From the NCBI GenBank assembly GCA_050259595.1, contig JBLNAX010000068.1, forward strand, positions 3,905 through 67,904: DNA of 64,000 nucleotides, written 5' to 3'. Position numbers and translations under genes: made by a program. Origin of the DNA: Acidobacteriota bacterium (GTDB taxonomy: Bacteria > Bacillota > Syntrophomonadia > Syntrophomonadales > DTU052). This document shows positions 22,197-61,940 of this stretch, one piece after another. Every line of letters starts with the position of its first letter. The stretch's first letter is position 1. The notes beneath the pieces are model-generated. The model had not been told where the DNA came from. It did not search any database and saw only the letters and a list, made by a program, of their open reading frames with translations.

Positions 22197-22255
22197 ATGC
22201 CTGTATCTGTAGTGTTATAATAGGCAGTAGGTGTCAAAAGAAAGGAAGATGGCTG

Positions 22256-24341: not shown

Positions 24342-24416
24342 GCCGATGTGGCTCAGTGGCAGAGCAGCTGATTCGTAATCAGCAGGTCGGCGGTTCAAAT
24401 CCGCCCATCGGCTCCA
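24342..24416 (+). tRNA. tRNA-Thr(CGT)
   Basis: Cloverleaf GCCGATG/CATCGGC acceptor, TGGCTCAGTGGCAGAGCA D-arm, GCTGA-TTCGTAA-TCAGC anticodon arm (anticodon CGT), GGTTCAAATCC T-arm, encoded CCA. Confidence 0.9.
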
Positions 24417-28726: not shown

Positions 28727-29239
28727 TTACTTTTGCTTGGCCTCGAGTCTTTTGAAAGCCTTAGCAACTATAGAATCCGTAATATATTTTGGATTATAGG
28801 TTTTTATCTTTGATATTACTTCCTTTGCGCTATTTACTGGCAGGCCTCCGGATTCTGCCAAAATGCAAATTAGTTCAATCCCCCAAATTAATGGAATCCC
28901 TTCCTCCTCGCATTTTTGTCGTAAAGGCTTGTCATTTGTAACACAGGTCCACCCATTTTGTTTGGCCATAATTAAGCATATTTTATCCTCAAAAGATAAC
29001 GGACTCCGATCTTCTCCTGCAGCCAACGCGACCTGATCTAATTCTGGTTCAATAATCTTTATACCCCATTCGACGAATCGATCTTCGTTAACATCAGTCA
29101 CCTCATCAACGATGGGCGTAGGTAAATATATCTGACCTACATAGTTACATATCAAACTTAGTAATGAAATGTCTGTAACACAGAAATCGATCAGAACATT
29201 AGCATCGAGTATTAATAGAGAACTCACATTTTTCTGCAC
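28727..29239 (-). CDS. PIN-domain nuclease-like protein (DUF4411-like)
   Basis: Acidic PIN tetrad candidates: LILDANVLID, VDEVTD, SFEDKICL, CVTNDKPL. It lies immediately downstream of the XRE-ImmA/IrrE gene with a 4-nt gap. Confidence 0.65.
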   Translation of the reverse strand: MQKNVSSLLILDANVLIDFCVTDISLLSLICNYVGQIYLPTPIVDEVTDVNEDRFVEWGIKIIEPELDQVALAAGEDRSPLSFEDKICLIMAKQNGWTCVTNDKPLRQKCEEEGIPLIWGIELICILAESGGLPVNSAKEVISKIKTYNPKYITDSIVAKAFKRLEAKQK

Positions 29240-29243
29240 TTGC

Positions 29244-30392
29244 CTATACCCATGAAGAGACTAATTCTCTCATTGACCCAAGATTCATTCCTAAAATCTC
29301 CGCCCCTCGACTCATTGTAATTTTGTCTTTTTCGATTGCTTGCCTTACCAGCCTAGCTAAGCGATCTTCAACAAAGTAGGACGGTAAAAGCGAATTAGGT
29401 TCCTTTGAGCGCAGAGCTTCAGGTGAGTGTTGAAATTTATCTTTAGTTAAACCCTCTGGTTCGTCTTTAAACCCAAGGCTTTTGCCAGTTTTCGCTTTTT
29501 GGGCAGCATAAAACTTGCTCCATACCTCATTCCCATATTGCTCAGAAAGTCTATACAACACAGTCTTATAACTTACCTGGAATATGCCCTTAACTTTGTA
29601 TACTCTATTGACCAAAGGTAAGCCATAAGTCCCTTTCCACTCCGAATTAAAAGATTCTTCGGGCATAAGGAAATATGAAGCGAAGATATCAGCTTCCTTT
29701 TCTTCATCCATATTCTCAGTGCTCTCAACAATATTGTAAGAATCTAAATGTAAGAGTAGATGCCCTAATTCATGAGCAGCACTAAAAATCCATCGTTCAA
29801 CCGAAATACGTTCCCAAACATTTACGATAATTGCTGGCCCCCCCTCAACTTGGGCTACTGACAAGCCAAAGAAATCATCAGAGGCCAATACTAGTGGATA
29901 TACTTTTATCCCAGCAGATTCAAGTAAACCGGCAATATCTCGAATAGGGTCTTTGTATGATAAGCCCAATTTATGCCTAGCTTCTTTAGCGGCAAATCTA
30001 GATCGATCTTCACCGGCGGGGATAGAGGATAACTTATCGGCAAGTTCTTGAAGCCCATAATCCTTACTATCATTCAACAGTTCCTCTAAATAACGGAAAT
30101 GATCTAGCCACCGCGCTACCTGAATTAAGATGCTTTCTCTGCTGTTCATTTTCTTCAAGGCTCTAAATCTTACTTTTTCCATAGTTCGGACAGACACGAA
30201 AAGATCTTGTAGCTTGAATCCAGCTCCTGCTGCAATGTTCTGTAAAGTCGAGACTTTTGGAATTGATTTACCACTTTCAATACTACGGTAAGCTACCCTA
30301 GAAATCCCCGCCATATTGGCTATTTCCTCCTGAGTATACCCCTTTGATTCCCGTAGCCGCCTTAGATTCAGCGCAATAATATTTTGATCCAT
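29244..30392 (-). CDS. XRE-family HTH fused to ImmA/IrrE (M78) zinc metallopeptidase
   Basis: N-terminal HTH (LRRLRESKGYTQEEIANMAGISRVAYRSIESGKSIP). The central region has an intact HELGH motif (FSAAHELGHLLLH) plus a downstream EKEADIFASYFLMP segment. ATG is at 30392; the track starts at GTG 30401. Confidence 0.8.
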   Translation of the reverse strand: MDQNIIALNLRRLRESKGYTQEEIANMAGISRVAYRSIESGKSIPKVSTLQNIAAGAGFKLQDLFVSVRTMEKVRFRALKKMNSRESILIQVARWLDHFRYLEELLNDSKDYGLQELADKLSSIPAGEDRSRFAAKEARHKLGLSYKDPIRDIAGLLESAGIKVYPLVLASDDFFGLSVAQVEGGPAIIVNVWERISVERWIFSAAHELGHLLLHLDSYNIVESTENMDEEKEADIFASYFLMPEESFNSEWKGTYGLPLVNRVYKVKGIFQVSYKTVLYRLSEQYGNEVWSKFYAAQKAKTGKSLGFKDEPEGLTKDKFQHSPEALRSKEPNSLLPSYFVEDRLARLVRQAIEKDKITMSRGAEILGMNLGSMRELVSSWV

Positions 30393-30463
30393 ATTCACCA
30401 ACTCTTTAATGTTTTTATTTTATTATATCATAATTTCAGGATTTGAATACATGATAAGCATAC

Positions 30464-30812: not shown

Positions 30813-31109
30813 ATGGAAAAGGTCTTAGTTGAAATCGAAGAATATGTAAAGAATGCTCGGGAAATCCCGAAAGAAGATGTGATATATAAATTTAAAGTTG
30901 GTTCCAAGACATGCGAAAGCGAATTTGCCGTTATCAACGGCCGTGAAATTCTTACCAAGGCAAACCTATTGCCGCCGGAGATGTATCAATTAAATCAACA
31001 TCTACGCGGCGGAAATGTTGTGCCGGTTGAACTGGATCAGCAGGTTGATCTTTCTGAGCATGGAATTGAAAGATTCTCATACCTCCGGAAAGATTCGACA
31101 GAAGGTTAG
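30813..31109 (+). CDS. ubiquitin-like beta-grasp protein (multiubiquitin-family, single unit) ending in Gly
   Basis: ATG lies 8 nt after AGGGGTGA; the track ORF starts at 30759. The pattern YKFKVGSKTCESEFAVINGREILTKANLLPPEMYQL resembles the prokaryotic multi-ubiquitin domain. The C-terminus is ...KDSTEG, then stop. Confidence 0.6.
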   Translation: MEKVLVEIEEYVKNAREIPKEDVIYKFKVGSKTCESEFAVINGREILTKANLLPPEMYQLNQHLRGGNVVPVELDQQVDLSEHGIERFSYLRKDSTEG

Positions 31110-31113
31110 TCTT

Positions 31114-31536
31114 ATGAGAAGGGATTTTGAAATATTCACAGATGATGCTAGTTTCCTTGATGCACGGAAATACATATGGGAAACTATTAAAGACAGTACC
31201 AATAATAATAACTGTTGGGTTTTGATTCACGATTATCCAATCCCAATCGGTTATAATGTGAATTCAGCGACAGCAGCCATTCTTTTATCTCCTGCTAATT
31301 ACTTGCATTCGGGTATTGATATGGTGTACTTCAATCCGCATCTGTCTAGGAGCGACGGCGTAATGATTAAGCAGATAGATGGTAGAATGGTTATCGAAGG
31401 TTCCAGTTATCAGCAATGGTCTCGGCACAGACAAGGTGATCCGTGGACGGTAGGTAATGACTCTCTTATTACTCACCTTTCGCTGGTCGACTACTGGTTA
31501 GCACGAGAATTTCAATCACAGGAACTTCGCTCATGA
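31114..31536 (+). CDS. prokaryotic E2-like (Prok-E2 family) protein
   Basis: ATG lies 5 nt after the upstream stop; the track ORF starts at 31015. The segment WVLIHDYPIPIGYN...ILLSPANYLHSGIDMVYFNPHL...QQWSRH...DSLITHLSLVDYWL matches my memory of the Prok-E2_E family. Confidence 0.55.
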   Translation: MRRDFEIFTDDASFLDARKYIWETIKDSTNNNNCWVLIHDYPIPIGYNVNSATAAILLSPANYLHSGIDMVYFNPHLSRSDGVMIKQIDGRMVIEGSSYQQWSRHRQGDPWTVGNDSLITHLSLVDYWLAREFQSQELRS

Positions 31537-32948
31537 TCCGTTACAAATTACGAATGACGGGCCGCCAATATGCGGCCCTGTCTCAACATTTGCTTGCCAA
31601 TGATGGTTGTGAATCTGTCGCTTTGGCTCTGTGCGGAGTTGGTGAAAGAAACGAAAATGGAATAATTGAACGTGTAGTAATGATTCGCGAAGTTATTCCA
31701 GTGCCGATTGATCAATGCATGGTACGTACCGCCGATTGTGTTAAGTGGTCAACCGAAATATTAAACGGTTTATTATCGAGAATAGACAAAGAAAATGCCA
31801 TCCTCTTAAAACTTCATAGCCATCGTTCAGAAACTGATGCCTTTTCAGAAACTGATGATATTTCTGACAATGAATTGGTTGACTCGGTGTCGGGGTATTT
31901 GCAGAGAGATTTTTGTTGTATAAGTGCCATCATGACAGAGAGTCGCCGCATAAAAGCACGAGTGCTTCAGGTGGATGGTAAGGCAATACCGGTAGAATCC
32001 GTCCTCATCGTCGGTGATGATATTCATTTTTGGCTTTACCAAGACATGAATGGGAATCAGGGTTTGGGCCAATTATCCAAACGAACAACGCAGACATTGG
32101 GTAGACATACGACACAAATCCTTTCTAGGCTAAGAATCGGCATAGTTGGCACTTCTGGAACCGGAAGTCCCACGGTTGAAATGTTAAACCGGTTAGGAGT
32201 AGGATATCTTGTTTTAGTGGATGGAGACATTATTAATCATCTTAATGTCGGGCGAATCTATAACTCAACTGTATGGGATGCAGATGAAGGTAGATACAAA
32301 GTTCACATTCTAAAACAAAAAATGCAACAAAACGGACTTCCCACAATTGTTGAGGCTTTTCCCAAAGACCTTTATCATGCGTCTGTTATCCGGGCCCTAG
32401 CACAATGTGATATTATTTTTGGATGCATGGATTCTGTTGATGGTAGGCATCTATTAAATAGGCTTTGTGTTTATTATTCAATACCATATTTCGATATTGG
32501 CATTGGCCTTGATGCAGATGGGCAAGGAGGGGTAGAACTCGTAAGTGGTACTGTTCACTATATCCAAGCTGACGGCTCATCACTTATGAGTCGGGGAGTA
32601 TACAATCCGGAAATGCTCCTTGCTAGTATTACTCAAAGACAAAACCCCGAGTTTTATGAAGATCAGCGACAACGGGGATATTTACGTGGTTCTAATGAGG
32701 ACCGTCCGGCTGTGATTAGTGTAAATACCATGATGGCAAGTATCGCTGTGAACGATTTTCTATCTAGAATACATCCTATTCGATACAGCGACAACAAGGA
32801 CGTTGCCCAGATTAGTTTAAACTGGAGTGGCATGTATATTCAAACTTTTTCAGCTAATGATTTCTCGACTGATCGATTATTTTTCAGAGACGTTGGTCGA
32901 GGCGATGTGCATCCATTGTTGCTTGAATACAATTTAGAAGGAGATTGA
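31533..32948 (+). CDS. JAB/MPN metalloprotease fused to ThiF/E1-like adenylating enzyme
   Basis: The ATGA start overlaps the E2 stop. N-terminal JAMM motif: E (CESVALALCG) ... HSHRSETDAFSETD (HxHx7SxxD). The C-terminal half has a Rossmann E1 signature RIGIVGTSGTGSPTVEMLNRLGVGYLVLVDGDIINHLNVGRIY and FGCMDSVDGRHLLNRLC. Confidence 0.8.
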   Translation: MIRYKLRMTGRQYAALSQHLLANDGCESVALALCGVGERNENGIIERVVMIREVIPVPIDQCMVRTADCVKWSTEILNGLLSRIDKENAILLKLHSHRSETDAFSETDDISDNELVDSVSGYLQRDFCCISAIMTESRRIKARVLQVDGKAIPVESVLIVGDDIHFWLYQDMNGNQGLGQLSKRTTQTLGRHTTQILSRLRIGIVGTSGTGSPTVEMLNRLGVGYLVLVDGDIINHLNVGRIYNSTVWDADEGRYKVHILKQKMQQNGLPTIVEAFPKDLYHASVIRALAQCDIIFGCMDSVDGRHLLNRLCVYYSIPYFDIGIGLDADGQGGVELVSGTVHYIQADGSSLMSRGVYNPEMLLASITQRQNPEFYEDQRQRGYLRGSNEDRPAVISVNTMMASIAVNDFLSRIHPIRYSDNKDVAQISLNWSGMYIQTFSANDFSTDRLFFRDVGRGDVHPLLLEYNLEGD

Positions 32949-33002: not shown

Positions 33003-33662
33003 TTAAGTACAGGCGCTTCCGCTTTGTATCGTGCGAGGATATCCCTGATAAGTTAGAAGAGCGTGCGCTTTGACTAACTTATAAAAAGTTGTAGGTTTAA
33101 GATTTAATTCATGCATTGCCAGTCTTGCAGTAATATTGCCTTCTTTCCACTTATAATAGACCTTCTCAAAATCACTTGGAAATTCAGCTTTGGGCCTGCC
33201 GAGATGTTTACCTTGAGCCTTGGCTATAGCAATTCCTTCAGCTTGTCGTTGTTTAATGTTCTCCCTCTCTTGTTGTGCCACATAAGCCAATACTTGAAGG
33301 ATTAAATCACTAATAAACGTTCCTAAAAGGTCTTTATGAAGCGTAGTATCAAGAAGTGACATATCCAATACTCTGATATCAGCTTTGGTATCCTGGGTAA
33401 TCTCCTGCCATTCATTGATTATTTCTCTGTAGTTTCGGCCTAGTCTATCAATAGACTTAATGATTAACAGATCGCCTTCACGCAAAGCATTCTTGAGAAT
33501 TTGGTATTGTGGGCGATTAAAATCTTTGCCGCTTTGCTTATCTAGAAGGATGTACCTTTCATCTACTCCTGCATCTACCATTGCTTGGATTTGCCTAGCC
33601 TCATTCTGGTCTTTATCACTAATCCTGCAGTAGCCGTAAGTTCTATTCTGCATTTCGAACAC
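33003..33662 (-). CDS. serine recombinase (resolvase/invertase family)
   Basis: YGYCRISDKDQNEARQ (catalytic Ser), the DLLIIKSIDRLGRN motif, and a C-terminal HTH. Confidence 0.88.
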   Translation of the reverse strand: MFEMQNRTYGYCRISDKDQNEARQIQAMVDAGVDERYILLDKQSGKDFNRPQYQILKNALREGDLLIIKSIDRLGRNYREIINEWQEITQDTKADIRVLDMSLLDTTLHKDLLGTFISDLILQVLAYVAQQERENIKQRQAEGIAIAKAQGKHLGRPKAEFPSDFEKVYYKWKEGNITARLAMHELNLKPTTFYKLVKAHALLTYQGYPRTIQSGSACT

Positions 33663-33866
33663 CCCCTAAGATGCTATACTCTTATTATATCGATGGTGTT
33701 CGTAAAAGTATATATAATTTACGAATATGTACGCTTATTATTTATGGCCTTTACGGTCGCGAATAAGTGTAATTATAGTGGGCATTTGGGATGTTCGCAA
33801 AGGTGTACCTTTATGGTCGTTGTAAGATCTAGTATGTAAAATGAGGATTTATCAAGATAGGGTTAA

Positions 33867-33920
33867 GGCTACCGAACCGTATTATATCTGGTCCGGATCG
33901 CAAGATATGAACTCGGACAT
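33867..33920. repeat. decayed copy of the tRNA-Arg(TCT)/tRNA-Pro(TGG) junction (direct repeat of 34877-34930)
   Basis: GGCTACCGAACCGTATTATATCTGGTCCGGATCGCAAGATATGAACTCGGAC compared with GGCTACCGACCTGTATTTTATCTGGTCCGGGTGGCAAGATTTGAACTCGCAG. About 44 of 54 positions are identical, at an offset of 1010 bp. Confidence 0.7.
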
Positions 33921-34040
33921 CAACGCTACTAGGATTTATTTGTCAGCCATAAAGTAGCCGGTTGCAATTGAATTAATCAAAGTCCATAGAAAACAAAAGC
34001 CGCACCTTGATTAGGTGCGGCGGTGTTGATAATCTTAAAT

Positions 34041-34343
34041 CTATTGATGTTGGGGTAAGAAATCAATTCTAACTCTGGCATCAAGAACCTCCGCAATTCG
34101 GGTTAGGGTTTGCAGGGTGATATTTTGATTACCCTTTTCAATTCTTGCGATTGTTGATTGTTTAGTGCCCAGCGCTTTCGCCAATTGTTCTTGTGTCCAT
34201 CCTTTTTCAATGCGTAAAGCTATGATCTGCCGCGTTATTTGATACTCGGGTTCGCTCTCGGCCCATTCTTTAGCGAATTGCGGGTCTTTAATCAAGTTTT
34301 TCTTAATATAGTTTTTCAAATCACTCATTGGTGTTACCTCCAA
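34041..34343 (-). CDS. XRE-family HTH antitoxin (HigA-like)
   Basis: GWTQEQLAKALGTKQSTIARIEKGNQNITLQTLTRIA helix-turn-helix. It lies directly downstream of the toxin gene with an 8-nt gap. Confidence 0.8.
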   Translation of the reverse strand: MEVTPMSDLKNYIKKNLIKDPQFAKEWAESEPEYQITRQIIALRIEKGWTQEQLAKALGTKQSTIARIEKGNQNITLQTLTRIAEVLDARVRIDFLPQHQ

Positions 34344-34351
34344 ATAGAAGC

Positions 34352-34693
34352 CTATGTATTTGATAAATAGGCTTTAAGTCGTTGTTCCGCTAGTTTCAAT
34401 TCAGCGTCAGGAAGCTTACGTGTTTTCTTAATAAATCCACTTAACAGTAACAGTATTTTACCGGCAACAACTGAGAAGAGGATGCGATATTGATTACCCT
34501 GAAACACGGTTCTTAGTTCCCATATATTTCGACCAATGTTGCTAACTAAGGGAAAACCGAGATCAGGACCAAACTCCTCTAACAAAAGAAGATTTCTCAG
34601 TATTTTAGCCCGAGCCTTAGCGTTTTGAGCATCTAAGAACTCACTAACCGGCTCGTTACGGCCTTCTTGGTAAAATGTTAATTCCCATGCCAT
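34352..34693 (-). CDS. type II toxin, RelE/HigB superfamily (phage Gp49-like)
   Basis: WELTFYQEGRNEPVSEFLD...NIWELRTVFQGNQYRILF...LLLLSGFIKKTRKLPDAELKLAEQR is the typical Gp49/HigB-2 pattern. Confidence 0.8.
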   Translation of the reverse strand: MAWELTFYQEGRNEPVSEFLDAQNAKARAKILRNLLLLEEFGPDLGFPLVSNIGRNIWELRTVFQGNQYRILFSVVAGKILLLLSGFIKKTRKLPDAELKLAEQRLKAYLSNT

Positions 34694-34811
34694 GGTTATA
34701 TTATATCATATATGCTATATTGTCTCCAGATGTACCAATTTGATTCGAGTTCTTGCTGCTCGCGTCACCAATTCGCACTAGTAGGGAAGCAAAGGAGCCG
34801 TTTTTGTATTT

Positions 34812-34888
34812 TGGCAGGCCGGACAGGATTCGAACCTGCATTAGGCAGTTTAGAAGACTGCTGCCTCGATCCATTAGGCTACCGACCT
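34812..34888 (-). tRNA. tRNA-Arg(TCT)
   Basis: Minus-strand cloverleaf with anticodon arm GCAGT-CTTCTAA-ACTGC, T-arm GCAGG-TTCGAAT-CCTGT, and encoded CCA. Confidence 0.8.
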
Positions 34889-34898
34889 GTATTTTATC

Positions 34899-34975
34899 TG
34901 GTCCGGGTGGCAAGATTTGAACTCGCAGTCTCGTGGTCCCAGGCCACGCGGGATACCAAGTTACCCTACACCCGG
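34899..34975 (-). tRNA. tRNA-Pro(TGG), atypical C at position 33
   Basis: Acceptor CGGGTGT.../...CACCCGG-A-CCA. Anticodon arm CGTGG-CCTGGGA-CCACG. The reading is confirmed by the track translation SWSQATR on the plus strand. Confidence 0.75.
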
Positions 34976-34983
34976 AGGAATTA

Positions 34984-35061
34984 TGGTGTCGGAGGCGAGA
35001 GTCGAACTCGCAAAACTGCGGGTTTGAGCCGCATATGTATGCCTGATTCCATCACTCCGAC
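34984..35061 (-). tRNA. tRNA with Leu anticodon CAA but no long variable arm (78 nt)
   Basis: GTCGGAG-TG-ATGGAATCAGGCATACAT-A-TGCGG-CTCAAAC-CCGCA-GTTTT-GCGAG-TTCGACT-CTCGC-CTCCGAC-A-CCA. It has a 3-bp Leu-type D-stem and a 5-nt variable loop. Confidence 0.65.
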
Positions 35062-35062
35062 A

Positions 35063-35147
35063 TGGTAATGGTGGAGAGATTCGAACTCTCATGGCTATGG
35101 CCCCTGGTTTTTAAGACCAGGACGTATACCCGTTCCGTCACACCAGC
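35063..35147 (-). tRNA. tRNA-Leu(TAA)
   Basis: An 85-nt class II tRNA with anticodon arm CTGGT-CTTAAAA-ACCAG and a 13-nt variable arm GGGCCATAGCCAT. There is one 2:71 mismatch in the acceptor stem. Confidence 0.75.
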
Positions 35148-35154
35148 ATAATTA

Positions 35155-35230
35155 TGGAGCCGGTGAGAGGACTTGAACCCCTAATCTACTGATTACAAGT
35201 CAGCCGCTTTTTCCATTGAGCTACACCGGC
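35155..35230 (-). tRNA. tRNA-Thr(TGT)
   Basis: Acceptor GCCGGTG/CACCGGC, anticodon loop CTTGTAA, T-loop TTCAAGT, encoded CCA. Confidence 0.85.
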
Positions 35231-35237
35231 TAAAATA

Positions 35238-35314
35238 TGGTGCGGGAGGGAGGACTTGAACCTCCGATCTACCGGTTCAAAGCCGGTCGCGTTAACCAAT
35301 TACGCTACTCCCGT
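35238..35314 (-). tRNA. tRNA-Gln(TTG)
   Basis: Anticodon arm ACCGG-CTTTGAA-CCGGT and D-arm GCGTAATTGGTTAACGC. The 1:72 pair is weak or mismatched. Confidence 0.8.
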
Positions 35315-35323
35315 ATTTATCAT

Positions 35324-35399
35324 TGGCACGGGGCGAAGGGGTCGAACCTCCAGTCTCCTGGGTCAGAACCAGGCATGTTGCCAATTACACCAGCCCCGT
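35324..35399 (-). tRNA. tRNA-Gln(CTG)
   Basis: Anticodon arm CCTGG-TTCTGAC-CCAGG, an A1:U72 pair, encoded CCA. Confidence 0.8.
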
Positions 35400-35404
35400 A
35401 TTTT

Positions 35405-35480
35405 TGGTGCCCCCAGATGGACTCGAACCATCAACTAACCGGTTATGGGCCGGTAACTCTAACCATTGAGTTATGGGAGC
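35405..35480 (-). tRNA. tRNA(CAT), elongator Met or Ile2 type, atypical C33
   Basis: Acceptor GCTCCCA/TGGGGGC with a G1:C72 pair, so it is not initiator-like. Anticodon arm ACCGG-CCCATAA-CCGGT. The reading is confirmed by the track translation LTGYGPVT. Confidence 0.7.
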
Positions 35481-35484
35481 ATTT

Positions 35485-35562
35485 TGGGGTGACTGACGAG
35501 ACTTGAACTCGTAAAGACCGGGGTCACAGTCCGGCGCGTATACCATTTCCGCCACAGCCACC
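35485..35562 (-). tRNA. tRNA-His(GTG)
   Basis: Anticodon loop CTGTGAC. An encoded extra G(-1) lies opposite C73, the hallmark of bacterial tRNA-His. Confidence 0.88.
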
Positions 35563-35609
35563 GCGTTATTATCTTATCTCAGGGGGAAGATCCTCAAGAG
35601 ATTGTTATC

Positions 35610-35687
35610 TGGCTCCCCGAGCAGGGCTCGATCCTGCGACCCTCCGGTTAACAGCCGGGCGCTACCACCAAACTGAGCTATCGGGGA
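35610..35687 (-). tRNA. tRNA-Asn(GTT)
   Basis: Acceptor TCGGGGA/TCCCCGA, D-arm GCTCAGTTTGGTGGTAGC, anticodon loop CTGTTAA. The T-loop ATCGAGC is atypical. Confidence 0.8.
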
Positions 35688-35691
35688 ATAA

Positions 35692-35769
35692 TGGTGCCTC
35701 CGACAGGGATCGAACCTGTGACCCTTCGATTATCGGTCGAATGCTCTACCAAAACTGAGCTACAGAGGC
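35692..35769 (-). tRNA. tRNA-Ile(GAT), atypical C33
   Basis: Anticodon arm TTCGA-CCGATAA-TCGAA, D-arm GCTCAGTTTTGGTAGAGC, T-loop TTCGATC. Confidence 0.72.
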
Positions 35770-35774
35770 ATTAA

Positions 35775-35850
35775 TGGTGTCCCTGAGAGGACTCGAACCT
35801 CCAACTTACCGGTTAAAAGCCGGTTACTCTGGCCATTGAGTTACAGAGAC
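35775..35850 (-). tRNA. tRNA-Lys(TTT)
   Basis: Anticodon arm ACCGG-CTTTTAA-CCGGT, encoded CCA. Confidence 0.85.
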
Positions 35851-35854
35851 ATAT

Positions 35855-35929
35855 TGGTGCTCCCGGATGGACTTGAACCATCAGCCTCGCGGTTAAGAGC
35901 CGCTTGCTCTGCCATTGAGCCACGGAAGC
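35855..35929 (-). tRNA. tRNA-Lys(CTT)
   Basis: Anticodon loop CTCTTAA, T-arm GATGG-TTCAAGT-CCATC. Confidence 0.82.
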
Positions 35930-35939
35930 AAAACTATCA

Positions 35940-36014
35940 TGGTGCTGCGGGTTGGAATCGAACCAACTACGCCACGGGCTTCAACCGAGCGCTCTACCGG
36001 TGAGCTACCACAGC
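35940..36014 (-). tRNA. tRNA-Phe(GAA)
   Basis: Anticodon loop TTGAAGC with one U:U mismatch in the anticodon stem. D-arm AGCTCACCGGTAGAGC. Confidence 0.78.
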
Positions 36015-36020
36015 ATTATT

Positions 36021-36097
36021 TGGTGGACCTGACAGGACTCGAACCTGCAACCTTCTGCTTGCAAAGCAGTCGTTCTCGCCATTAGAACTACAGGCCC
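36021..36097 (-). tRNA. tRNA-Ala(TGC)
   Basis: Acceptor GGGCCTG with the G3:U70 Ala identity pair. Anticodon loop TTTGCAA. Confidence 0.85.
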
Positions 36098-36100
36098 ACA

Positions 36101-36176
36101 TGGTGCTCCCTGGTGGAATCGAACCACCGGTCTTATGCTTGTAAGGCATCTGCTCTTCTCACTGAGCTAAGGGAGC
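36101..36176 (-). tRNA. tRNA-Val(TAC)
   Basis: Acceptor GCTCCCT/AGGGAGC, anticodon loop CTTACAA, T-arm GGTGG-TTCGATT-CCACC. Confidence 0.85.
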
Positions 36177-36217
36177 CGGATAAATAAGAAGGGGTTGTGA
36201 CTTTAATTCACAACCCC
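36177..36217 (-). terminator. perfect 10-bp hairpin + U-rich tract between the two tRNA blocks
   Basis: GGGGTTGTGA-7 nt-TCACAACCCC. On the minus strand it is followed by TTCTTATTTATCCG, which runs straight into tRNA-Val. Confidence 0.45.
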
Positions 36218-36380
36218 TGGATTGGTCGTATTTTCGGTCACTTTAAGTATTCATGATCGTCTGTTTTGGGCATGTTGAGTTAATACGATAAACGGTTTTA
36301 TCGCTGTATTTCTGAATATTGTGTTCGTAATGCCCAAAGTTTTCACTGATTAATCTCCTATTCTTGTTTAGTATTAAAAC

Positions 36381-36470
36381 TGGCGGAGACGGAAGGACTC
36401 GAACCTTCAAACGCTGTTAACGTCACTGGGTTTCAAAGCCAGGCCCCGCCCCACTGGGGTCAACGTCTCC
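36381..36470 (-). tRNA. tRNA-Ser(TGA)
   Basis: A 90-nt class II tRNA with anticodon loop TTTGAAA, a C:C mismatch closing the stem, a long variable arm and discriminator G. The D-arm is poorly canonical. Confidence 0.65.
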
Positions 36471-36478
36471 TTGATTAA

Positions 36479-36566
36479 TGGAGGAAGAGGAGGGATTCGA
36501 ACCCACGGAACCTCACGGCCCTCCGGTTTTCGAAACCGGCGCATTAATCCTCTCTGCCAATCTTCC
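36479..36566 (-). tRNA. tRNA-Ser(CGA)
   Basis: An 88-nt tRNA with D-arm TGGCAGAGAGGATTAATGC, anticodon arm CCGGT-TTCGAAA-ACCGG and a 16-nt variable arm. There is one T-stem mismatch and one 7:66 mismatch. Confidence 0.72.
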
Positions 36567-36580
36567 TCAATGTTAAGTTC

Positions 36581-36675
36581 TGGCGGAGAGAGTGGGGGTC
36601 GAACCCACGCAGGCTGCTGCTAGCAACCCCTGGTGCCTTTCCAAGACACTCCCTTAGCCTCTTGGGTATCTCTCC
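36581..36675 (-). tRNA. tRNA-Ser(GGA)
   Basis: A 95-nt tRNA with acceptor GGAGAGA/TCTCTCC, anticodon arm GTGTC-TTGGAAA-GGCAC and a very long variable arm. Confidence 0.75.
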
Positions 36676-36682
36676 AAAAACA

Positions 36683-36773
36683 TGGCGGAGGATGTAGGAT
36701 TTGAACCTACGCAGGCGTTACCACCCCTAGCGGTTTAGCAAACCGCCCTCTTCAGCCACTTGAGTAATCCTCC
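36683..36773 (-). tRNA. tRNA-Ser(GCT)
   Basis: A 91-nt tRNA with acceptor GGAGGAT/ATCCTCC, anticodon arm GCGGT-TTGCTAA-ACCGC and a long variable arm. Confidence 0.78.
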
Positions 36774-36780
36774 GTATATT

Positions 36781-36857
36781 TGGTACGGACGAGAGGGGTC
36801 GAACCTCCAAAACTACGGGTCTAAGCCGCATACGTATGCCAGTTCCGTCACGTCCGC
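36781..36857 (-). tRNA. tRNA with Leu anticodon TAG but no long variable arm (77 nt)
   Basis: GCGGACG-TG-ACGGAACTGGCATACGT-A-TGCGG-CTTAGAC-CCGTA-GTTTT-GGAGG-TTCGACC-CCTCT-CGTCCGT-A-CCA. The reading is confirmed by the track translation WYGREGSNLQNYGSKPHTYASSVTSA. Confidence 0.65.
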
Positions 36858-36870
36858 ACGTTTTCAATTT

Positions 36871-36945
36871 TGGTTGCGGGCCCAGGAGTTGAACCAGGTT
36901 AATCCGAGTTATGAGCCCGGCGAAGATGCCGACCTTCCGCCCGCA
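36871..36945 (-). tRNA. initiator-like tRNA-Met(CAT)
   Basis: Anticodon arm CCGGG-CTCATAA-CTCGG with a G29-G31 run. The D-stem has an A11:U24 pair, and the 3' end is ...CCCGCAACCA as in tRNA-fMet. Position 1:72 is a U:A pair, and the T-stem has a U:U mismatch. Confidence 0.7.
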
Positions 36946-36946
36946 A

Positions 36947-37022
36947 TGGCGACCCCGACCGGATTTGAACCGGCGATCTCTGGCGTGACAAGCCAGCATT
37001 CTAGCCCCTGAACTACGGAGTC
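36947..37022 (-). tRNA. tRNA-Asp(GTC)
   Basis: Anticodon arm CTGGC-TTGTCAC-GCCAG, discriminator G, encoded CCA. Confidence 0.85.
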
Positions 37023-37029
37023 ATATTTA

Positions 37030-37116
37030 TGGAGGCGTGGACGGGGTTTGAACCCGCGCGGGCGCTATGCCCATCAGCTTGAAAGGCTGACCTCTGTACC
37101 ATTCGAGTACCACGCC
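37030..37116 (-). tRNA. class II-shaped tRNA (87 nt, long variable arm) carrying Glu anticodon TTC
   Basis: GGCGTGG-TA-CTCGAATGGTACAGAG-G-TCAGC-CTTTCAA-GCTGA-TGGGCATAGCGCCCGC-GCGGG-TTCAAAC-CCCGT-CCACGCC-T-CCA. It has a 3-bp D-stem, a 16-nt variable arm and discriminator U. Confidence 0.6.
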
Positions 37117-37129
37117 ATGCTGTTATATA

Positions 37130-37217
37130 TGGTGCCACCGGAGGGAATCGCACCCACTCGGGTCAATTGACGACGGATTTACAGTCCGCCCCGTCTGCTT
37201 TAACGGTCTACGATGGC
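37130..37217 (-). tRNA. tRNA-Tyr(GTA)
   Basis: An 88-nt class II tRNA with anticodon arm GCGGA-CTGTAAA-TCCGT, a 15-nt variable arm and discriminator A. The T-loop TGCGATT is atypical. Confidence 0.78.
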
Positions 37218-37226
37218 ATATTCATT

Positions 37227-37304
37227 TGGAGAACGGGGTGGGATTCGACCCCACGAGTCCATGGTTTTGCAGACCAGGCCATTAGGCCTCTCTGGCACCC
37301 GTTC
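37227..37304 (-). tRNA. tRNA-Cys(GCA)
   Basis: Anticodon loop CTGCAAA and discriminator U73 (a Cys identity element). Acceptor GAACGGG/CCCGTTC. The T-loop GTCGAAT is atypical. Confidence 0.75.
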
Positions 37305-37312
37305 ATATATTT

Positions 37313-37386
37313 TGGAGCGAGCAGTCAGACTCGAACTGACATCTCTGGCTTGGAAGGCCAGGGCACACCCTTTATACCATACCCGC
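37313..37386 (-). tRNA. tRNA-Gly(TCC)
   Basis: A 74-nt tRNA with anticodon arm CTGGC-CTTCCAA-GCCAG, a 4-nt variable loop and discriminator U73. Confidence 0.82.
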
Positions 37387-37396
37387 TTAATTATCA

Positions 37397-37475
37397 TGGC
37401 ACCGGTGGAGAGATTCGAACTCCCAAAACCTACTGGTTCGTAGCCAGCCGCTCTCTCCAGTTGAGCTACACCGGC
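37397..37475 (-). tRNA. tRNA-Arg(ACG)
   Basis: Anticodon arm GCTGG-CTACGAA-CCAGT, D-arm GCTCAACTGGAGAGAGC and a 7-nt variable loop. Confidence 0.8.
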
Positions 37476-37480
37476 ATTAT

Positions 37481-37571
37481 TGGCACGGGTGGAAGGAGTT
37501 GAACCCTCACAAGCCTTATAGGGGCCTTCGGATTTGGAGTCCGCTGCTCTGCCAGTTGGAGCTACACCCGT
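37481..37571 (-). tRNA. tRNA-Trp(CCA) carrying a 19-nt extra arm in the variable region (91 nt)
   Basis: ACGGGTG-TA-GCTCCAACTGGCAGAGC-A-GCGGA-CTCCAAA-TCCGA-[AGGCC-CCTATAA-GGCTT-GT]-GAGGG-TTCAACT-CCTTC-CACCCGT-G-CCA. The reading is confirmed by the minus-strand track translation CTGVAPTGRAADSKSEGPYKACEGSTPSTRA. Confidence 0.65.
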
Positions 37572-37580
37572 GCATTCGTA

Positions 37581-37618
37581 TATAAAAATAAAACCGAGTG
37601 CGATGTACACACTCGGTT
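37581..37618 (-). terminator. hairpin + U-tract just upstream of the first tRNA of the array
   Basis: AACCGAGTG-9 nt-CACTCGGTT. On the minus strand it is followed by TTATTTTTATA, ending about 10 nt before the tRNA-Trp 5' end. Confidence 0.45.
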
Positions 37619-37937
37619 CGAAAAATCTTCTACTTCGGTTGTTAATCACACGTTACGTTATTCGCTTCCCCCTGTTTGATCCCAGCATTGTATATTGTTT
37701 CGGATCGAATTGGGCGCAGTCTATCGAGCCAGAGAACAGACGCTCTGACCAGCGAATACTGAGACTATTTTGTTGGCTATTCAATAAGTGCCTCAACGCT
37801 GCACCCTCCTCTTGTATACAATATACATTAGCATAATAAAACCAAAACAATACAATGTCAACCACTTTTTAGATATTTGTCCTATATTATCATTTTCAAT
37901 TCAGTTCGGAAAGTCTGTAGAACTGTAGGTGATCGGT

Positions 37938-38951
37938 TCACCATAAATGCGTCCAGAATTCTGGCTCGTATGGCTTAAAATCAATGGCTTTATAGACGAA
38001 GGCATTATCTTTGTATTGATATGTAATGGTAAATGTACCGACATAATTGTCTGTATAATGGGTGCTGGCTTCTATCTTACAAATAATCTCGCCGTTTTTA
38101 TTAACAGCGAACTCATTCACTTCACTTGTAAACTGTTTATCAATATCCATAATTGCACCAGGAGGACAATATTTCTTCATCGGGTAACGCATTGTGTGGT
38201 TGTTGATATGAACCGTAATGTGCTTTTTGCTTAGAGAATTGGAACTGTGCCCAGCCCAAAGCTTGAAAGGGTCGTCAATAGGGATCTCCTTACCTGAGTC
38301 AGGATTCATAATGTGCGCCACATATAATGAACAGCCTGTTCCAGAACCTACAGGGACAAACACAGCAACCTCGGGTTTTTTATCCTGATCCCAATCATTA
38401 ACAGCCAGTTCGGGCATCACACCTCTGGGCAGCCGCGGAATATCAAAATATACTGAGCATGAAGTAGACTTGCTTGTTAGTTTAACCCCTTGATAATAAT
38501 ATTTAAGTGAATCAGCAGTTAATTTAAATCCATCGTCTTTTGAACTTGCTAGAATGTTAGTTTCTGTGGCTAGGGTAGCTGGGTCAAGCCAATATGAAAC
38601 CCTGCTATCATCCTTTCCCTGTGGCGGAGGATATAGGACAACCGCCAAAGGCGGCGTATGGGCAGAAGTATACCCTTCTTGCCAAATCTCGGGCATTTTA
38701 TTAGGATCAGTACTGGTCTTCCACGGAAGCTTACGTAAACGGCCATGTCCCTCAAGGATTAAATCGGTGTAGTAGTTGTTCTCAAGATTGGTTGCATATA
38801 ACGATACGCCTTCATATTGGGCTAAAAGTTTTTTAAAGGAGGAATTTGCAGGCCCTTCAACTTGTTTTTGTGAGTGAGAATCTGAACAGCCTCCGATGAG
38901 AAGAACAAGGATAGATAAAAGCAAGAAGCCGGTAAGATTGAGCTTTCGCAT
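37938..38951 (-). CDS. lipoprotein, function unknown
   Basis: An internal ATG gives MRKLNLTGFLLLSILVLLIGGCSDS, a signal peptide with lipobox L-I-G-G-C. The track ORF extends to 38981. Confidence 0.7.
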   Translation of the reverse strand: MRKLNLTGFLLLSILVLLIGGCSDSHSQKQVEGPANSSFKKLLAQYEGVSLYATNLENNYYTDLILEGHGRLRKLPWKTSTDPNKMPEIWQEGYTSAHTPPLAVVLYPPPQGKDDSRVSYWLDPATLATETNILASSKDDGFKLTADSLKYYYQGVKLTSKSTSCSVYFDIPRLPRGVMPELAVNDWDQDKKPEVAVFVPVGSGTGCSLYVAHIMNPDSGKEIPIDDPFKLWAGHSSNSLSKKHITVHINNHTMRYPMKKYCPPGAIMDIDKQFTSEVNEFAVNKNGEIICKIEASTHYTDNYVGTFTITYQYKDNAFVYKAIDFKPYEPEFWTHLW

Positions 38952-38965
38952 GGCGCCTCCAATAT

Positions 38966-39394
38966 CTAACAACGATTCCACTTGTCATCTTCCATGATTC
39001 TATCAATGATATGATTATCTGCCCAAACAGCTGTTACCTCCAGCCCTTCACAGTCAGCTTTGGTTGATGGCTTTATTTCCCCGCGATAATATACAGAGTA
39101 CTCACCTGATATAGCATCTACAATACATGAAGGTGGCGGCCACTCCTCATCTTCATTGAGAAATGGGCGGTGATCAACTTTTGGCCAATTCCCCGACTTG
39201 AGTACATAATCGTAAACTCCAACCATGAACTGGTATTCCTCGCAGTTAGGTAGGTCTTCCACTGATCCTCCGAGGTGCTTGTAGATTGCAATGGTTGCAT
39301 CCCGAAAAATTCTTCCAAATGCCCATTGCCCATTTGGAAGTGGAATAGCATATACATCTCCAATCTTCTTTCGCTTTCCGAGTTTTCTAGTCAT
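38966..39394 (-). CDS. putative polymorphic-toxin immunity protein (Imm26-like)
   Basis: The N-terminus KRKKIGDVYAIPLPNGQWAFGRIF...IAIYK resembles the Imm26 family as I remember it. It is a small cytoplasmic protein. Confidence 0.4.
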   Translation of the reverse strand: MTRKLGKRKKIGDVYAIPLPNGQWAFGRIFRDATIAIYKHLGGSVEDLPNCEEYQFMVGVYDYVLKSGNWPKVDHRPFLNEDEEWPPPSCIVDAISGEYSVYYRGEIKPSTKADCEGLEVTAVWADNHIIDRIMEDDKWNRC

Positions 39395-40283: not shown

Positions 40284-41531
40284 ATGGCTAAACTAGATGA
40301 TTTCAATAACATAAACATCCCGGTGCGGTTTTTCCGGAACCCAGACGTCAAATTTGAGAACAATGCTCTGGATGAACTCAAGAGTTTGCTCAATATATCT
40401 AGTACAATTGAGCACTTAAAAGAGTCAGATAAGGGTTTCTTTTCAAATATTGATGCTTGTGTTGAGGAGGTGGCCATTACCCCCGATTTTCATAAAGGAG
40501 CAGGAATTCCTATTGGGACTGTTATGCTGACCCAGGGATTGATTATACCGCAAGCCATCGGAAACGATGTTAATTGTGGGATGAGACTCTATGTAACTGA
40601 CCTTAATGAAGAAGCGATAAGATCAGTACTGCCGTATTTGGAGAATACAATTCGCCACGTCTTCTTTGAAGGTGGACAGAACATTCCAATGACTCGTATT
40701 CAGAGAGAAGCACTTTTAAAAGAAGGTCTTTTAGGGCTTCTTGAGACATCAAATATAGGCCAGAAAAAAGGCTTATGGCAATATTACCAGCGTGAGCAGC
40801 AGGAGTCCGAGATTGAGAATGTAAGCAGTATGGGGTCAATGATTGCTGATTCAGTGATTGGTCTGGACGATTTCTTAGGGATTAACGAGCTCTCGTACGA
40901 TGGGCAGATTGGTTCAATTGGAGGCGGAAATCACTTTGTTGAAGTCCAGACTGTCTCAAAGATATTGGATAGCCAGGTTGCTAATGCCTGGGGCTTGAAG
41001 AAAGATCAGATAGTGATAATGATTCACACTGGTTCGGTAATGATAGGACACCACAGTGGTTCATATTTTAAGGATATTGTTAAGAGTATCTACCCTAAGA
41101 ATCTTAAACATCCCGATAATGGTATATACATATTGCCGGATTCTGAGCAGTTCATTAATCAGTGGGATATGTTTTGGAACCTGCTGTCAAACGCTGCTAA
41201 CTTTGCGTTTGGTAACCGCCTATTCCTTGGTCTAATGCTTAAAAGGGCATTAGTTGAGACTATTGGGGAGTTTGATTGCAGGTTACTATATGATTCCCCC
41301 CATAACCTGGTTTGGAAAGAGAATATAGATGGCAAGAGCTATTATCTGCACCGGAAGGGTGCCTGCCCGGCTAGGAGCATGAGCCAAATGACAGGAACCA
41401 AGTTCGAGTATTATGGGGAACCTGTATTCCTGCCTGGGTCGATGGGATCATCCAGTTTTGTACTCGCAGGTCTTGGTAATAGGCAGAGCCTTTTTAGTGC
41501 TAGTCATGGTGCCGGGAACCTATCTTGTTGA
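40284..41531 (+). pseudogene. rtcB: RtcB-family RNA ligase, apparently C-terminally truncated
   Basis: RtcB motifs are present: PDFHKGAGIPIGTV, NDVNCGMRL, GGGNHFVEVQ, HTGS, HNLVW, LPGSMGSSSFVL and SHGAGN. The ORF stops 4 codons after HGAG, whereas family members normally continue for about 60-80 aa. Confidence 0.6.
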
Positions 41532-42095: not shown

Positions 42096-43058
42096 ATGGC
42101 AAAAAGTGATAATATGCTGGCGATCCTACGGATGCTTAATTCAGGATCAAAAATAACTGCGAAGCAAATAGCTGAAAAATTAGAGATAAATATACGGACC
42201 GTTTATCGTTATATTGATTCGCTGTGCGCAAGCGGTGTACCGATTATATCAGATACAGGACAGAACGGCGGATATAGTTTACTGAACAACTTTATTCATG
42301 CGCCTTTATTTTTTGATATTGAAGAACAAAAAGCATTGCTTCATGCAGCCGTATTTGCCAACGAAGCAGGATACCCTTTCAGTGAGGCGCTAAACAATGC
42401 GACACAAAAACTGAAAATGTATTCTAACCGGGAACAGGAAAGTATCCTCAAACGCCACTTAGCCGGTTTCGAAGTGATAAACCTTGATATTGCCCCGTCT
42501 GTTAAGTTGACATTGGAAGAACTTGAGCGAGCTATAGCCAACGAATGTTCTGTAGAAATTGAATACCGTACACGCCATGAAGAAAAACCCCAGTCAAGAT
42601 TGATTGACCCTTATGGAATGTTCTTTTGGAACAATAAATGGTATACAGTTGGATTTTGCCATCTTCGAAATGATATAAGAAGCTTTCGAGCCGAACGGAT
42701 TATTCGGATACAACGGACGCAAATGACGTTTAAAAGGCCGGAAGCCTTTTCTGCCAGGAAATATTTTATGCAAAATCTTTTACCGGATTCTAAAAGTGAA
42801 GCTGGTGTGGTGTCATTAATTATTAGTGGCCGATCAGAAGCTCTGGACGATTTGTGCGTTCATTGGTTCTTAGGACATTATTTGAAAGAACGTTCATCTA
42901 ATCAAGCAGTTTTTTTGCTTGACGAAAGAGCACTTCATGCATATGTACCTTCTTTTCTTCTATCTTATGGAGAGGCTTTTCAAGTGATAGAACCGCAGAG
43001 TTTAAAGAAAAAGCTTGTTTCTGTTGCATCGAGATTACTGGAATATTATCAATTATGA
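42096..43058 (+). CDS. YafY-family transcriptional regulator (HTH + WYL domain)
   Basis: N-terminal MLAILRMLNSGSKITAKQIAEKLEINIRTVYRYIDSL. The central WYL-type segment is DPYGMFFWNNKWYTVGFCHLRNDIRSFRAERI. Confidence 0.85.
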   Translation: MAKSDNMLAILRMLNSGSKITAKQIAEKLEINIRTVYRYIDSLCASGVPIISDTGQNGGYSLLNNFIHAPLFFDIEEQKALLHAAVFANEAGYPFSEALNNATQKLKMYSNREQESILKRHLAGFEVINLDIAPSVKLTLEELERAIANECSVEIEYRTRHEEKPQSRLIDPYGMFFWNNKWYTVGFCHLRNDIRSFRAERIIRIQRTQMTFKRPEAFSARKYFMQNLLPDSKSEAGVVSLIISGRSEALDDLCVHWFLGHYLKERSSNQAVFLLDERALHAYVPSFLLSYGEAFQVIEPQSLKKKLVSVASRLLEYYQL

Positions 43059-61924: not shown

Positions 61925-61940
61925 GGAGGAATGAAGGAAT

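Follow-up and report, generated by a model that had tools for sequence, protein, structure and literature searches.

To our knowledge, bacteria, plasmids and large phages commonly carry accessory tRNA arrays, and their use is understood for essentially one case, that of Anabaena. A tRNA array unit is defined as a cluster of 20 or more tRNA genes having at least two genes per kb (Tran et al., 2016, PMC4758250), and the related L-array concept has been framed for phyla other than Firmicutes and Tenericutes (Santamaria-Gomez et al., 2021, PMC8421152). The L-array of Anabaena sp. PCC 7120 is a 26-gene trn operon that is silent and becomes induced by translational stress (PMC8421152), and it is controlled at the promoter by the ribbon-helix-helix repressor TrcR (PMC10272220). 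Besides, there is ample documentation of tRNA-targeting toxins and defences and of phage tRNAs acting against them (PMC10264068, PMC11555353, PMC11464382, PMC7790460). Here we analyse a stretch of 64,000 nucleotides from contig JBLNAX010000068.1 (assembly GCA_050259595.1; the 64-kb window in the following), in which 29 tRNA genes lie on the minus strand at 34812-37571 in two blocks, each preceded by a leader with a short open reading frame (ORF) and a predicted terminator.

The leaders trpL, hisL, pheL and thrL are leader-peptide transcription attenuators. Antibiotic-sensing leaders such as bmrB are leader-peptide attenuators as well (PMC4191407). On balance, we favour the reading that the array is a horizontally acquired supernumerary tRNA operon in an island beside tRNA-Thr(CGT), with the two leaders serving as codon-sampling attenuators. 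The array itself is of a known kind, and what is new, as far as we could find, are the codon-sampling nested leaders.

Layout of the array and its two leaders

ARAGORN finds 30 tRNA genes in the window, the 29 of the array and one on the plus strand. An original prediction made from the sequence alone had listed the same 29 genes with their anticodons and order, and ARAGORN reproduced this list exactly; a CCA end is encoded in 29 of 29 genes, also as claimed. In transcription order, 13 genes (37571-36381) are followed by the predicted gap of 204 nt (36380-36177) and by another 16 genes (36176-34812). The spacers within the blocks measure 1-48 nt, so that the earlier range of 1-47 nt holds except for its maximum, which is the Asn/His spacer (35562-35609, 48 nt). 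With 29 genes in 2760 nt, i.e. 10.5 tRNA genes per kb, and no repeating unit, the locus falls within the definition of a tRNA array unit, and it also has the layout of an L-array: a long, non-periodic run of genes in the same direction, close enough for co-transcription. The elements that are decisive for the following, in the order of transcription, with the possible internal start last, are:

37833-37861, minus strand: predicted promoter-like site for the whole operon, TTGACA-17 nt-TATTAT, 11 of 12 consensus matches
37805-37811, minus strand: Shine-Dalgarno (SD) sequence GAGGAGG, read from the sequence, 8 nt before the TTG of ORF1
37653-37796, minus strand: leader ORF1, TTG start, 47 aa, MRHLLNSQQNSLSIRWSERLFSGSIDCAQFDPKQYTMLGSNRGKRIT, 46 codons after the start
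37581-37619, minus strand: predicted terminator T1, 12-bp stem at 37619-37591, then UAUUUUUAUA, -18.8 kcal/mol, z -6.5
36355-36359, minus strand: SD sequence AGGAG, read from the sequence, 8 nt before the GTG of ORF2
36251-36346, minus strand: leader ORF2, GTG start, 31 aa, MKTLGITNTIFRNTAIKPFIVLTQHAQNRRS, 30 codons after the start
36179-36218, minus strand: predicted terminator T2, 11-bp stem at 36218-36190, then UCUUAUUUAU, -18.3 kcal/mol, z -4.9
34812-36176, minus strand: block 2, 16 tRNA genes (ARAGORN and Rfam)
35568-35597, minus strand: weak promoter-like site TTGAGG-18-GATAAT in the Asn/His spacer, 9 of 12 matches, a possible internal start

The promoter-like site at 37861-37833 is the best one in a 6-kb scan and the sole near-consensus site on the array strand. 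The promoter/terminator scan gave three strong terminators on this strand, namely T1, T2 and one past the antitoxin gene downstream of the array; the z scores relate the folding energy to that of shuffled sequences. Both leaders are built alike. The SD spacing is identical (8 nt), a U-rich tract follows both stems, and the distance from stop codon to stem is nearly the same: the T1 stem begins 33 nt past the ORF1 stop codon and ends 19 nt before tRNA-Trp, and the T2 stem begins 32 nt past the ORF2 stop codon and ends 13 nt before tRNA-Val. In both leaders, the stretch from the terminator to the next tRNA gene is too short for a promoter, so that the tRNAs have to be transcribed through T1 and T2. 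Neither a T-box nor a known riboswitch was found in the leaders, as cmscan (E ≤ 5, 36150-37900) returned only tRNA-type and chance matches.

Codon content of the leader ORFs and a proposed nested attenuation

To describe their codon content, each leader codon was assigned to the array tRNA that reads it. With its 46 codons, ORF1 draws on 27 of the 29 tRNAs in the array, and only Val and Gln-CTG are missing. Block 1 is sampled completely (13 of 13), its four Ser species with one codon each. In ORF2, 27 of 30 codons are read by block-2 tRNAs and 14 of the 16 block-2 species are used, the two unused ones being the C34 duplicates Lys-CTT and Gln-CTG. Furthermore, ORF2 is devoid of W, C, Y, E, D and internal M codons, and the tRNAs for all of these are located in block 1.

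Such a codon content is rare under each of the null models applied. Sliding windows of real genes use 19.6 array tRNAs on average and 25 at most (n=5247), none of them reaching 27, and a model of independent, identically distributed (iid) codons gives P = 2e-4 for at least 27 tRNAs. The use of all 13 block-1 tRNAs by ORF1 has a probability of about 1-2e-3 (2e-3 in the iid model). For ORF2, 27 of 30 codons in block 2 correspond to P = 4e-4 with real-gene windows and 1.3e-4 with iid codons, the joint iid probability together with 14 of 16 species is 1e-5, and random 16-of-29 partitions of the tRNAs yield P = 6e-5. Among open windows in all six frames of the 64 kb, 2 of 5606 reach 27 tRNAs, consistent with windows overlapping ORF1, and 1 of 8176 combines both properties of ORF2, consistent with ORF2 itself. 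Tests at the amino-acid level and with strict wobble are at least as strong; under strict wobble ORF1 uses 26 tRNAs against a maximum of 24, and ORF2 contains at most two block-1 codons (P = 1e-4).

Based on these data, we propose an attenuation of the leader-peptide type. The promoter at 37861-37833 would drive SD-ORF1-T1, 13 tRNAs, SD-ORF2-T2, 16 tRNAs and the downstream higBA-like pair as one transcript, so that ORF1 would gate the whole operon and ORF2 block 2 only. From the anatomy of the leaders we infer that both ORFs are translated and that both hairpins terminate transcription. A ribosome would stall in a leader whenever a sampled tRNA becomes scarce, be it due to an anticodon nuclease or a delivered tRNase toxin, starvation or translation inhibitors, and this stalling would relieve termination and raise the read-through of the terminator. 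The spare tRNAs of the affected block would then be made, and the array would stay largely silent under normal decoding. As block 2 needs both terminators open, both codon sets have to be reported by the outer ORF and just the inner set by the inner ORF, and the observed split between ORF1 and ORF2 is the one that nested gates require. That the leader ORFs are genuine sensors gating transcription appears to us, on sequence grounds, about an even call or marginally better. The wider picture of a silent tRNA reserve behind two nested "test messages", where any decoding failure releases the matching block through a maybe non-classical coupling, is put forward tentatively and falls a little short of an even chance.

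Several observations weigh against these sensors. The codon idea was formed on ORF2, so that ORF1 alone counts as a prediction, which it bore out. Five leader codons (GGC twice, GCC twice, CTC) need four-way U34 wobble to be read, and neither leader ORF begins with ATG (TTG and GTG instead). With 32-33 nt from the stop codon down to the stem, a terminating ribosome is too far away to touch the hairpin. Minimum-free-energy folds showed no antiterminator, duplex searches against either terminator arm performed no better than shuffles, and in ribosome-masked partition functions the pairing of the terminator 5' arm is independent of the ribosome position, these tests being thermodynamic predictions only. 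Thus, of the four features of a leader-peptide attenuator three are seen in the sequence and the mutually exclusive antiterminator is not predicted, and we therefore file the locus as one that works like an attenuator and not as a proven member of this class. Finally, it is a single locus: no relative of the array turned up across phage, plasmid, viral, metagenome, genome and protein collections, so there is no related array for a comparison of the ORFs, and none of 14 other tRNA clusters examined has comparable leader ORFs. In leader 1, predicted folding allows a segment adjacent to the SD sequence to pair with the 5' arm of T1, and the coupling step could be kinetic, protein-mediated or exerted via the leader 5' end.

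Part of these observations also fits an accessory array whose leader ORFs are not sensors. In this case the hairpins might terminate leakily, or might stabilise the 3' ends of small mRNAs that RNase P releases; expression might be low and constitutive, or a protein might control the promoter, as is the case in Anabaena; and the codon match might be a coincidence, or the ORFs might encode small peptides with another role. The lack of a predicted antiterminator, a hairpin that is available irrespective of the ribosome position, the 14 tRNA clusters without comparable ORFs and the weak internal promoter-like site at 35597-35568 are in line with this explanation, as is the finding that the sole characterised L-array is regulated by a repressor and not by a leader (PMC10272220). 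Nevertheless, we consider it rather unlikely, given codon statistics that are extreme under several nulls (with P = 6e-5 for the block partition of ORF2), two units with the same SD spacing and nearly equal stop-to-terminator spacing, and the missing space for a promoter between either terminator and the next tRNA.

Members of the array and the island around it

To judge the members of the array, the Rfam gathering score of either the tRNA or the tRNA-Sec model was taken as a pass. With the tRNA model, 25 members pass in a scan of the whole window and a local scan adds Cys, giving 26 of 29 with a mean of 56.6 bits for those that pass. For the other three, Ser-TGA, Tyr and the block-1 CAT tRNA, the tRNA-Sec model fits better (37.6, 32.3 and 27 bits) and stays under its threshold of 47. 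The genes of block 1 are:

37481-37571, minus strand: tRNA-Trp(CCA), 91 nt, ARAGORN, Rfam 48.0 bits
37397-37475, minus strand: tRNA-Arg(ACG), ARAGORN, Rfam 57.4 bits
37313-37386, minus strand: tRNA-Gly(TCC), ARAGORN, Rfam 53.1 bits
37227-37304, minus strand: tRNA-Cys(GCA), ARAGORN, Rfam 44.1 bits in the local scan, T loop GTCGAAT
37130-37217, minus strand: tRNA-Tyr(GTA), ARAGORN, under the Rfam thresholds
37030-37116, minus strand: tRNA with anticodon TTC (Glu by anticodon), 87 nt, Rfam 55.9 bits
36947-37022, minus strand: tRNA-Asp(GTC), ARAGORN, Rfam 63.9 bits
36871-36945, minus strand: block-1 tRNA(CAT), ARAGORN, under the Rfam thresholds
36781-36857, minus strand: tRNA-Leu(TAG), 77 nt, Rfam 47.0 bits
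36381-36773, minus strand: four tRNA-Ser, GCT (36683-36773), GGA (36581-36675), CGA (36479-36566) and TGA (36381-36470)

Block 2 runs from Val-TAC over Ala-TGC, Phe-GAA, Lys-CTT, Lys-TTT, Ile-GAT, Asn-GTT and His-GTG to CAT, Gln-CTG, Gln-TTG, Thr-TGT, Leu-TAA, Leu-CAA, Pro-TGG and Arg-TCT.

Several members deviate from the canonical structure. tRNA-Trp combines Trp-type A1-U72 and G73 with a long variable arm (5 bp) as in class II tRNAs. In the TTC tRNA, a D stem of 3 bp goes along with a long variable arm and U73, and Ser-GCT gives the best alignment, so that its body is Ser-like and of class II; all 20 amino acids are thus represented by anticodon, as claimed before, and not by tRNA body. 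The odd T loops named in the original prediction were read as given there, with ATCGAGC in Asn and TGCGATT in Tyr besides that of Cys, and the D loop of tRNA-Tyr lacks GG. The block-1 CAT tRNA has an anticodon stem of the GGG/CUC type, a one-base linker between acceptor and D stem and a mismatched T stem. Leu-TAG (77 nt) and Leu-CAA (78 nt) have kept the Leu-type D arm and A73, and the long variable arm is missing. U33 is a near-universal tRNA base, and C33 is found in 3 of the 29 array tRNAs (Ile-GAT, block-2 CAT, Pro-TGG).

Some of these traits occur elsewhere. C33 is present in 9 of 212 tRNAs of other clusters that we scanned (L014, L081-L096 and others), and short tRNA-Leu of 75-78 nt without a long variable arm also occur in unrelated phage-like clusters and in clusters from metagenome-assembled genomes (MAGs), the sites being 5234-5389 in L096, 7928-8078 and 8805-8879 in L014, and 34984-35061 and 36781-36857 in the window. 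Accessory arrays in general may be characterised by such class I-like forms of tRNA-Leu.

Two rRNA operon (rrn)-linked tRNA operons of Bacillota obtained by blastn served as controls, one from C. difficile (L104) and one from Priestia (L105). All of their tRNAs pass Rfam (18/18 and 20/20) with means of 66.3 and 65.3 bits, and the operons start right behind the 5S rRNA and show familiar gene orders, neither of which is matched by the array. The array members score about 9 bits below these housekeeping controls, so the canonical-like scores that would have spoken for a core operon were not seen. As anticipated, no rRNA operon adjoins the array, since the Rfam scan gave no match to rRNA or any other non-tRNA RNA family in the whole window. 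The claim of a complete decoding set did not hold up: by standard wobble, 48 of the 61 codons can be read by the array, CGG is left without a reader, four-way U34 wobble would be required for twelve NNY codons in four-codon boxes, and two CAT tRNAs face the three roles of initiator, elongator Met and Ile2. Of the codons in the window's core genes, 77% are covered under standard wobble and 23% are unreadable. The preference of the original prediction for an accessory array is thus supported by island, missing rRNA, gene order and Rfam scores, and we are confident that the array is accessory and not a housekeeping operon.

Two side observations concern the controls. C. difficile L104 carries at 6589-6665, within the otherwise unremarkable rrn-linked operon, a tRNA with CTA anticodon (62.8 bits, "Pyl" in ARAGORN), which would read UAG. 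Besides, L104 and L105 are plasmid-labelled records (PLSDB NZ_CP149745.1 and NZ_CP140268.1) with rRNA-tRNA operons flanked by chromosomal-type genes (cwlD; recR-yaaL-bofA), and they may be chromosome fragments or chromids rather than plasmids.

The surroundings of the array comprise the following features:

24342-24416, plus strand: canonical chromosomal tRNA-Thr(CGT), ARAGORN, Rfam 73.2 bits
24518-25669, minus strand: tyrosine integrase, left island edge, about 100 nt past tRNA-Thr
33003-33662, minus strand: serine recombinase (resolvase family), adjoining the scar
33863-33917, minus strand: scar of a Pro/Arg junction, 50-55 nt, between the antitoxin and resolvase genes
33999-34021, minus strand: first strong predicted terminator downstream of the array, after the antitoxin gene, -19 kcal/mol, z -6.6
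34041-34693, minus strand: Gp49/HigB-like toxin (34352-34693) and helix-turn-helix (HTH) antitoxin (34041-34343)
38966-39394: Imm26-like gene
40284-41531, plus strand: RtcB-family RNA ligase, 2.7 kb from the array
42096-43058, plus strand: HTH-WYL regulator, downstream of RtcB

Between about 24.4 and 46 kb, the GC content is 38-42% compared to 45-52% on either side, and the array itself has 48-50%, as expected for tRNA genes. Upstream, a core cluster for arginine biosynthesis (argC, J, B, D, F, G ... H) reaches almost up to tRNA-Thr(CGT), where the island has probably integrated. As no direct repeat of the tRNA-Thr 3' end (attR) was found in the 64-kb window, the right border of the island is undefined. 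This low-GC island, starting with tRNA-Thr and the integrase and carrying a resolvase, a toxin-antitoxin pair and defence-type genes, marks the array as acquired by horizontal transfer. The flanks described in the original prediction were all located, as a Gp49/HigB-HTH pair, a resolvase, a copy of the Pro/Arg junction and an Imm26-like gene. In the scar, a Pro-like tRNA is represented by T arm, acceptor strand and CCA, and an Arg-like one, beyond a spacer of 10 nt, by its first ~14 nt. The identity to the Pro/Arg junction of the array is about 88%, with differences in the acceptor-stem strands of both tRNAs, the partner strands being absent. To judge from its sequence, the scar is the remnant of a second, diverged array copy. 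No terminator was found between the last tRNA (Arg-TCT) and the higB-like gene (34694-34811), so that read-through from the array would include the toxin-antitoxin pair, which also has its own extended -10 promoter-like site at 34728-34700.

The best matches of the island genes are from Bacillota (RtcB 70-73%, HigB 55-66%), and a gene for a DJ-1 protein also lies in the low-GC stretch. By its proximity, RtcB is a possible functional companion of the array. Directly upstream of the array promoter, and sharing 16 nt with the Imm26-like gene, lies a 347-aa ORF (window 37938-38981), for which a search of 5.8 billion proteins (E ≤ 1e-3) gave no homologue and Pfam, NCBIfam and PADLOC gave no match. 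On the other side, a PIN-like (DUF3368) protein is paired with a protein containing HTH and M78 peptidase domains (window 28727-30401), the latter matching the PADLOC models RmrA and CapP, and the two are probably a toxin/regulator or defence-control pair. At window 31015-32948, a prokaryotic E2 (family E) gene precedes a JAB and ThiF/E1 fusion; ubiquitin-like conjugation pairs of this type are known from CBASS/Bil-type defence, and neither a cyclase nor a ubiquitin-like gene was recognised beside this one. To the right of the low-GC stretch, the locus at window 47012-63593 encodes a 4970-aa Rhs-type polymorphic toxin with RCC1, fn3, PKD and RHS repeats and a C-terminal ADP-ribosyltransferase domain (residues 4796-4957). 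Behind it come the genes for an ADP-ribosylglycohydrolase (62151-63089) and for a SUKH-3 immunity protein (63147-63593). Another Rhs ADP-ribosyltransferase is reported to modify the anticodon loop of a tRNA (PMC13617354). Taken as an association only, these neighbours (RtcB, the WYL regulator, immunity genes, the Rhs-ADP-ribosyltransferase locus and the defence-type pairs) fit a role in surviving an attack on translation.

A horizontally acquired array might also be a decaying relic, the cargo of a former phage or integrative element with tRNAs that are largely non-functional pseudogenes silenced by the terminators. Three members under the Rfam thresholds, aberrant T and D loops, C33 and misplaced or missing variable arms in several members, the scar of another array copy and the lack of an attR repeat of tRNA-Thr in the window can all be quoted for such a decay. 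However, the 26 of 29 members above the Rfam tRNA threshold have intact acceptor stems and an encoded CCA, the promoter, SD sequences, ORFs and terminators are all intact, and in the Anabaena array with similar oddities 23 of 26 tRNAs are nevertheless charged in vivo (PMC8421152), which makes a relic improbable in our view. That the array is the core tRNA operon of the organism is very unlikely even though long same-strand tRNA operons with encoded CCA are common in Bacillota (PMC8421152), because no rRNA adjoins it, order and Rfam scores are unlike those of the housekeeping controls, members are non-canonical and decoding is incomplete (23% of core codons unreadable by standard wobble, CGG unread), and as it lies inside a low-GC island bounded by an integrase, with a canonical tRNA-Thr(CGT) outside the array and two strong predicted terminators in front of its genes.

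Relatives and comparison with known systems

The array with its two leaders stands alone in the collections we searched. Blastn against phage and plasmid collections gave generic tRNA similarity only. Anticodon-order patterns in IMG/VR and JGI metagenomes led to phage-type clusters with 60-66% tRNA identity and a different layout, which share short runs of the order (Lys-Lys-Ile, Lys-Ile-Asn-His, Phe-Lys-Lys-Ile), and the patterns for T2, the class II Trp and the orders Val-Ala-Phe and Gln-Gln-Thr had 0 matches in viral contigs. A protein search with a spurious ORF spanning Trp-Arg-Gly-Cys retrieved only itself, and homologues of HigB (≤66% identity) lie in other mobile contexts without tRNAs. 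A structural variant suggested by a 219-aa gene call in L098 was rejected, since this contig proved collinear with the window and the gene call itself spurious. ArgG, ArgJ, ArgD and a histidine phosphatase from the core part of the window (12947-23644) form singleton clusters at 90% identity among ~15 billion proteins; the host lineage is therefore without close sequenced relatives. Exact-protein matches came from one NCBI contig (80 kb) and from Logan SRR24085912, whose contigs are 100% identical to the window.

At RtcB loci, tRNA arrays are absent in 79 of 80 cases and the neighbours of RtcB are not conserved. The exception is L014, a Verrucomicrobiota MAG (JASGKY010000042.1, 1-16400) with 20 tRNA genes predicted by ARAGORN, three of its Leu tRNAs being just 75 nt long. 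Its RNA-repair locus comprises Ro60/TROVE, a metallophosphatase, an HNH protein and two RtcB genes, and further an R2K ATP-grasp protein, an Rnl-type RNA ligase, an HD and kinase protein and a methyltransferase. L014 independently supports a functional link of spare tRNAs with RNA repair, yet it is no relative of this array. Similar leaders were suspected in its gaps of ~90-240 nt (most of them 184-243 nt); this idea was rejected, as the gaps hold degenerate tRNA-like sequences with CCA-like tails and not an ORF with a terminator.

In a full-text literature search we found no paper describing a leader-peptide attenuator on tRNA genes, and the regulation of tRNA genes by ORFs that enumerate their codons is, as far as could be found, undescribed. 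The locus offers a self-contained control logic that can be read from the sequence, as the ORFs list the codons of the tRNAs that they would gate. If true, tRNA genes would for the first time be seen under the control of a leader-peptide attenuator, and no earlier one would have sensed the entire decoding repertoire instead of one amino acid. This would be a new attenuator type reporting global decoding capacity. It would directly link the depletion of the tRNA pool to the expression of replacement tRNAs and would provide a simple portable sensor of tRNA shortage. Besides, it would support the idea that chromosomal tRNA arrays are countermeasures to tRNA-targeting toxins, which fits RtcB, the immunity genes and the Rhs locus in the vicinity.

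With rrn-linked operons of Bacillota the array shares the head-to-tail arrangement, short spacers and encoded CCA. In contrast to these operons it has non-canonical members and sits in an island, and unlike the Priestia operon (L105; Val-Thr-Lys-Leu-Gly-Leu-Arg-Pro-Ala-Met...) it has no 5S or other rRNA upstream, a different order and lower scores. It resembles the tRNA clusters by which phages outlast tRNA-targeting defences (PMC10264068, PMC11555353, PMC11464382) in its large, deviant tRNA set and in a neighbourhood of conflict genes with an RNA ligase nearby, but it is located in a chromosomal island without phage structural genes, and the identity of 60-66% to such clusters is generic.

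The resemblance to L-arrays goes further: a dense array of more than 20 genes in the same orientation, in horizontally acquired DNA and with aberrant members, which supplies further isodecoders and no new specificities and should stay silent as long as translation is not under stress. Unlike the Anabaena L-array, to which no sequence relationship was detected, there are two SD-ORF-terminator leaders here, whereas leaders or terminators are not mentioned in the L-array paper.

For these leaders, the closest counterpart are the leader-peptide attenuators, with which they have in common a short ORF preceded by an SD sequence, matching codons and a predicted intrinsic terminator before the regulated genes. 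In contrast to trpL-type attenuators, no antiterminator hairpin is predicted at the array leaders, and the regulated products are tRNAs instead of biosynthetic enzymes or resistance proteins. Furthermore, where a trpL-type leader repeats one codon, the array ORFs sample nearly all codons once, and they do so in two nested units.

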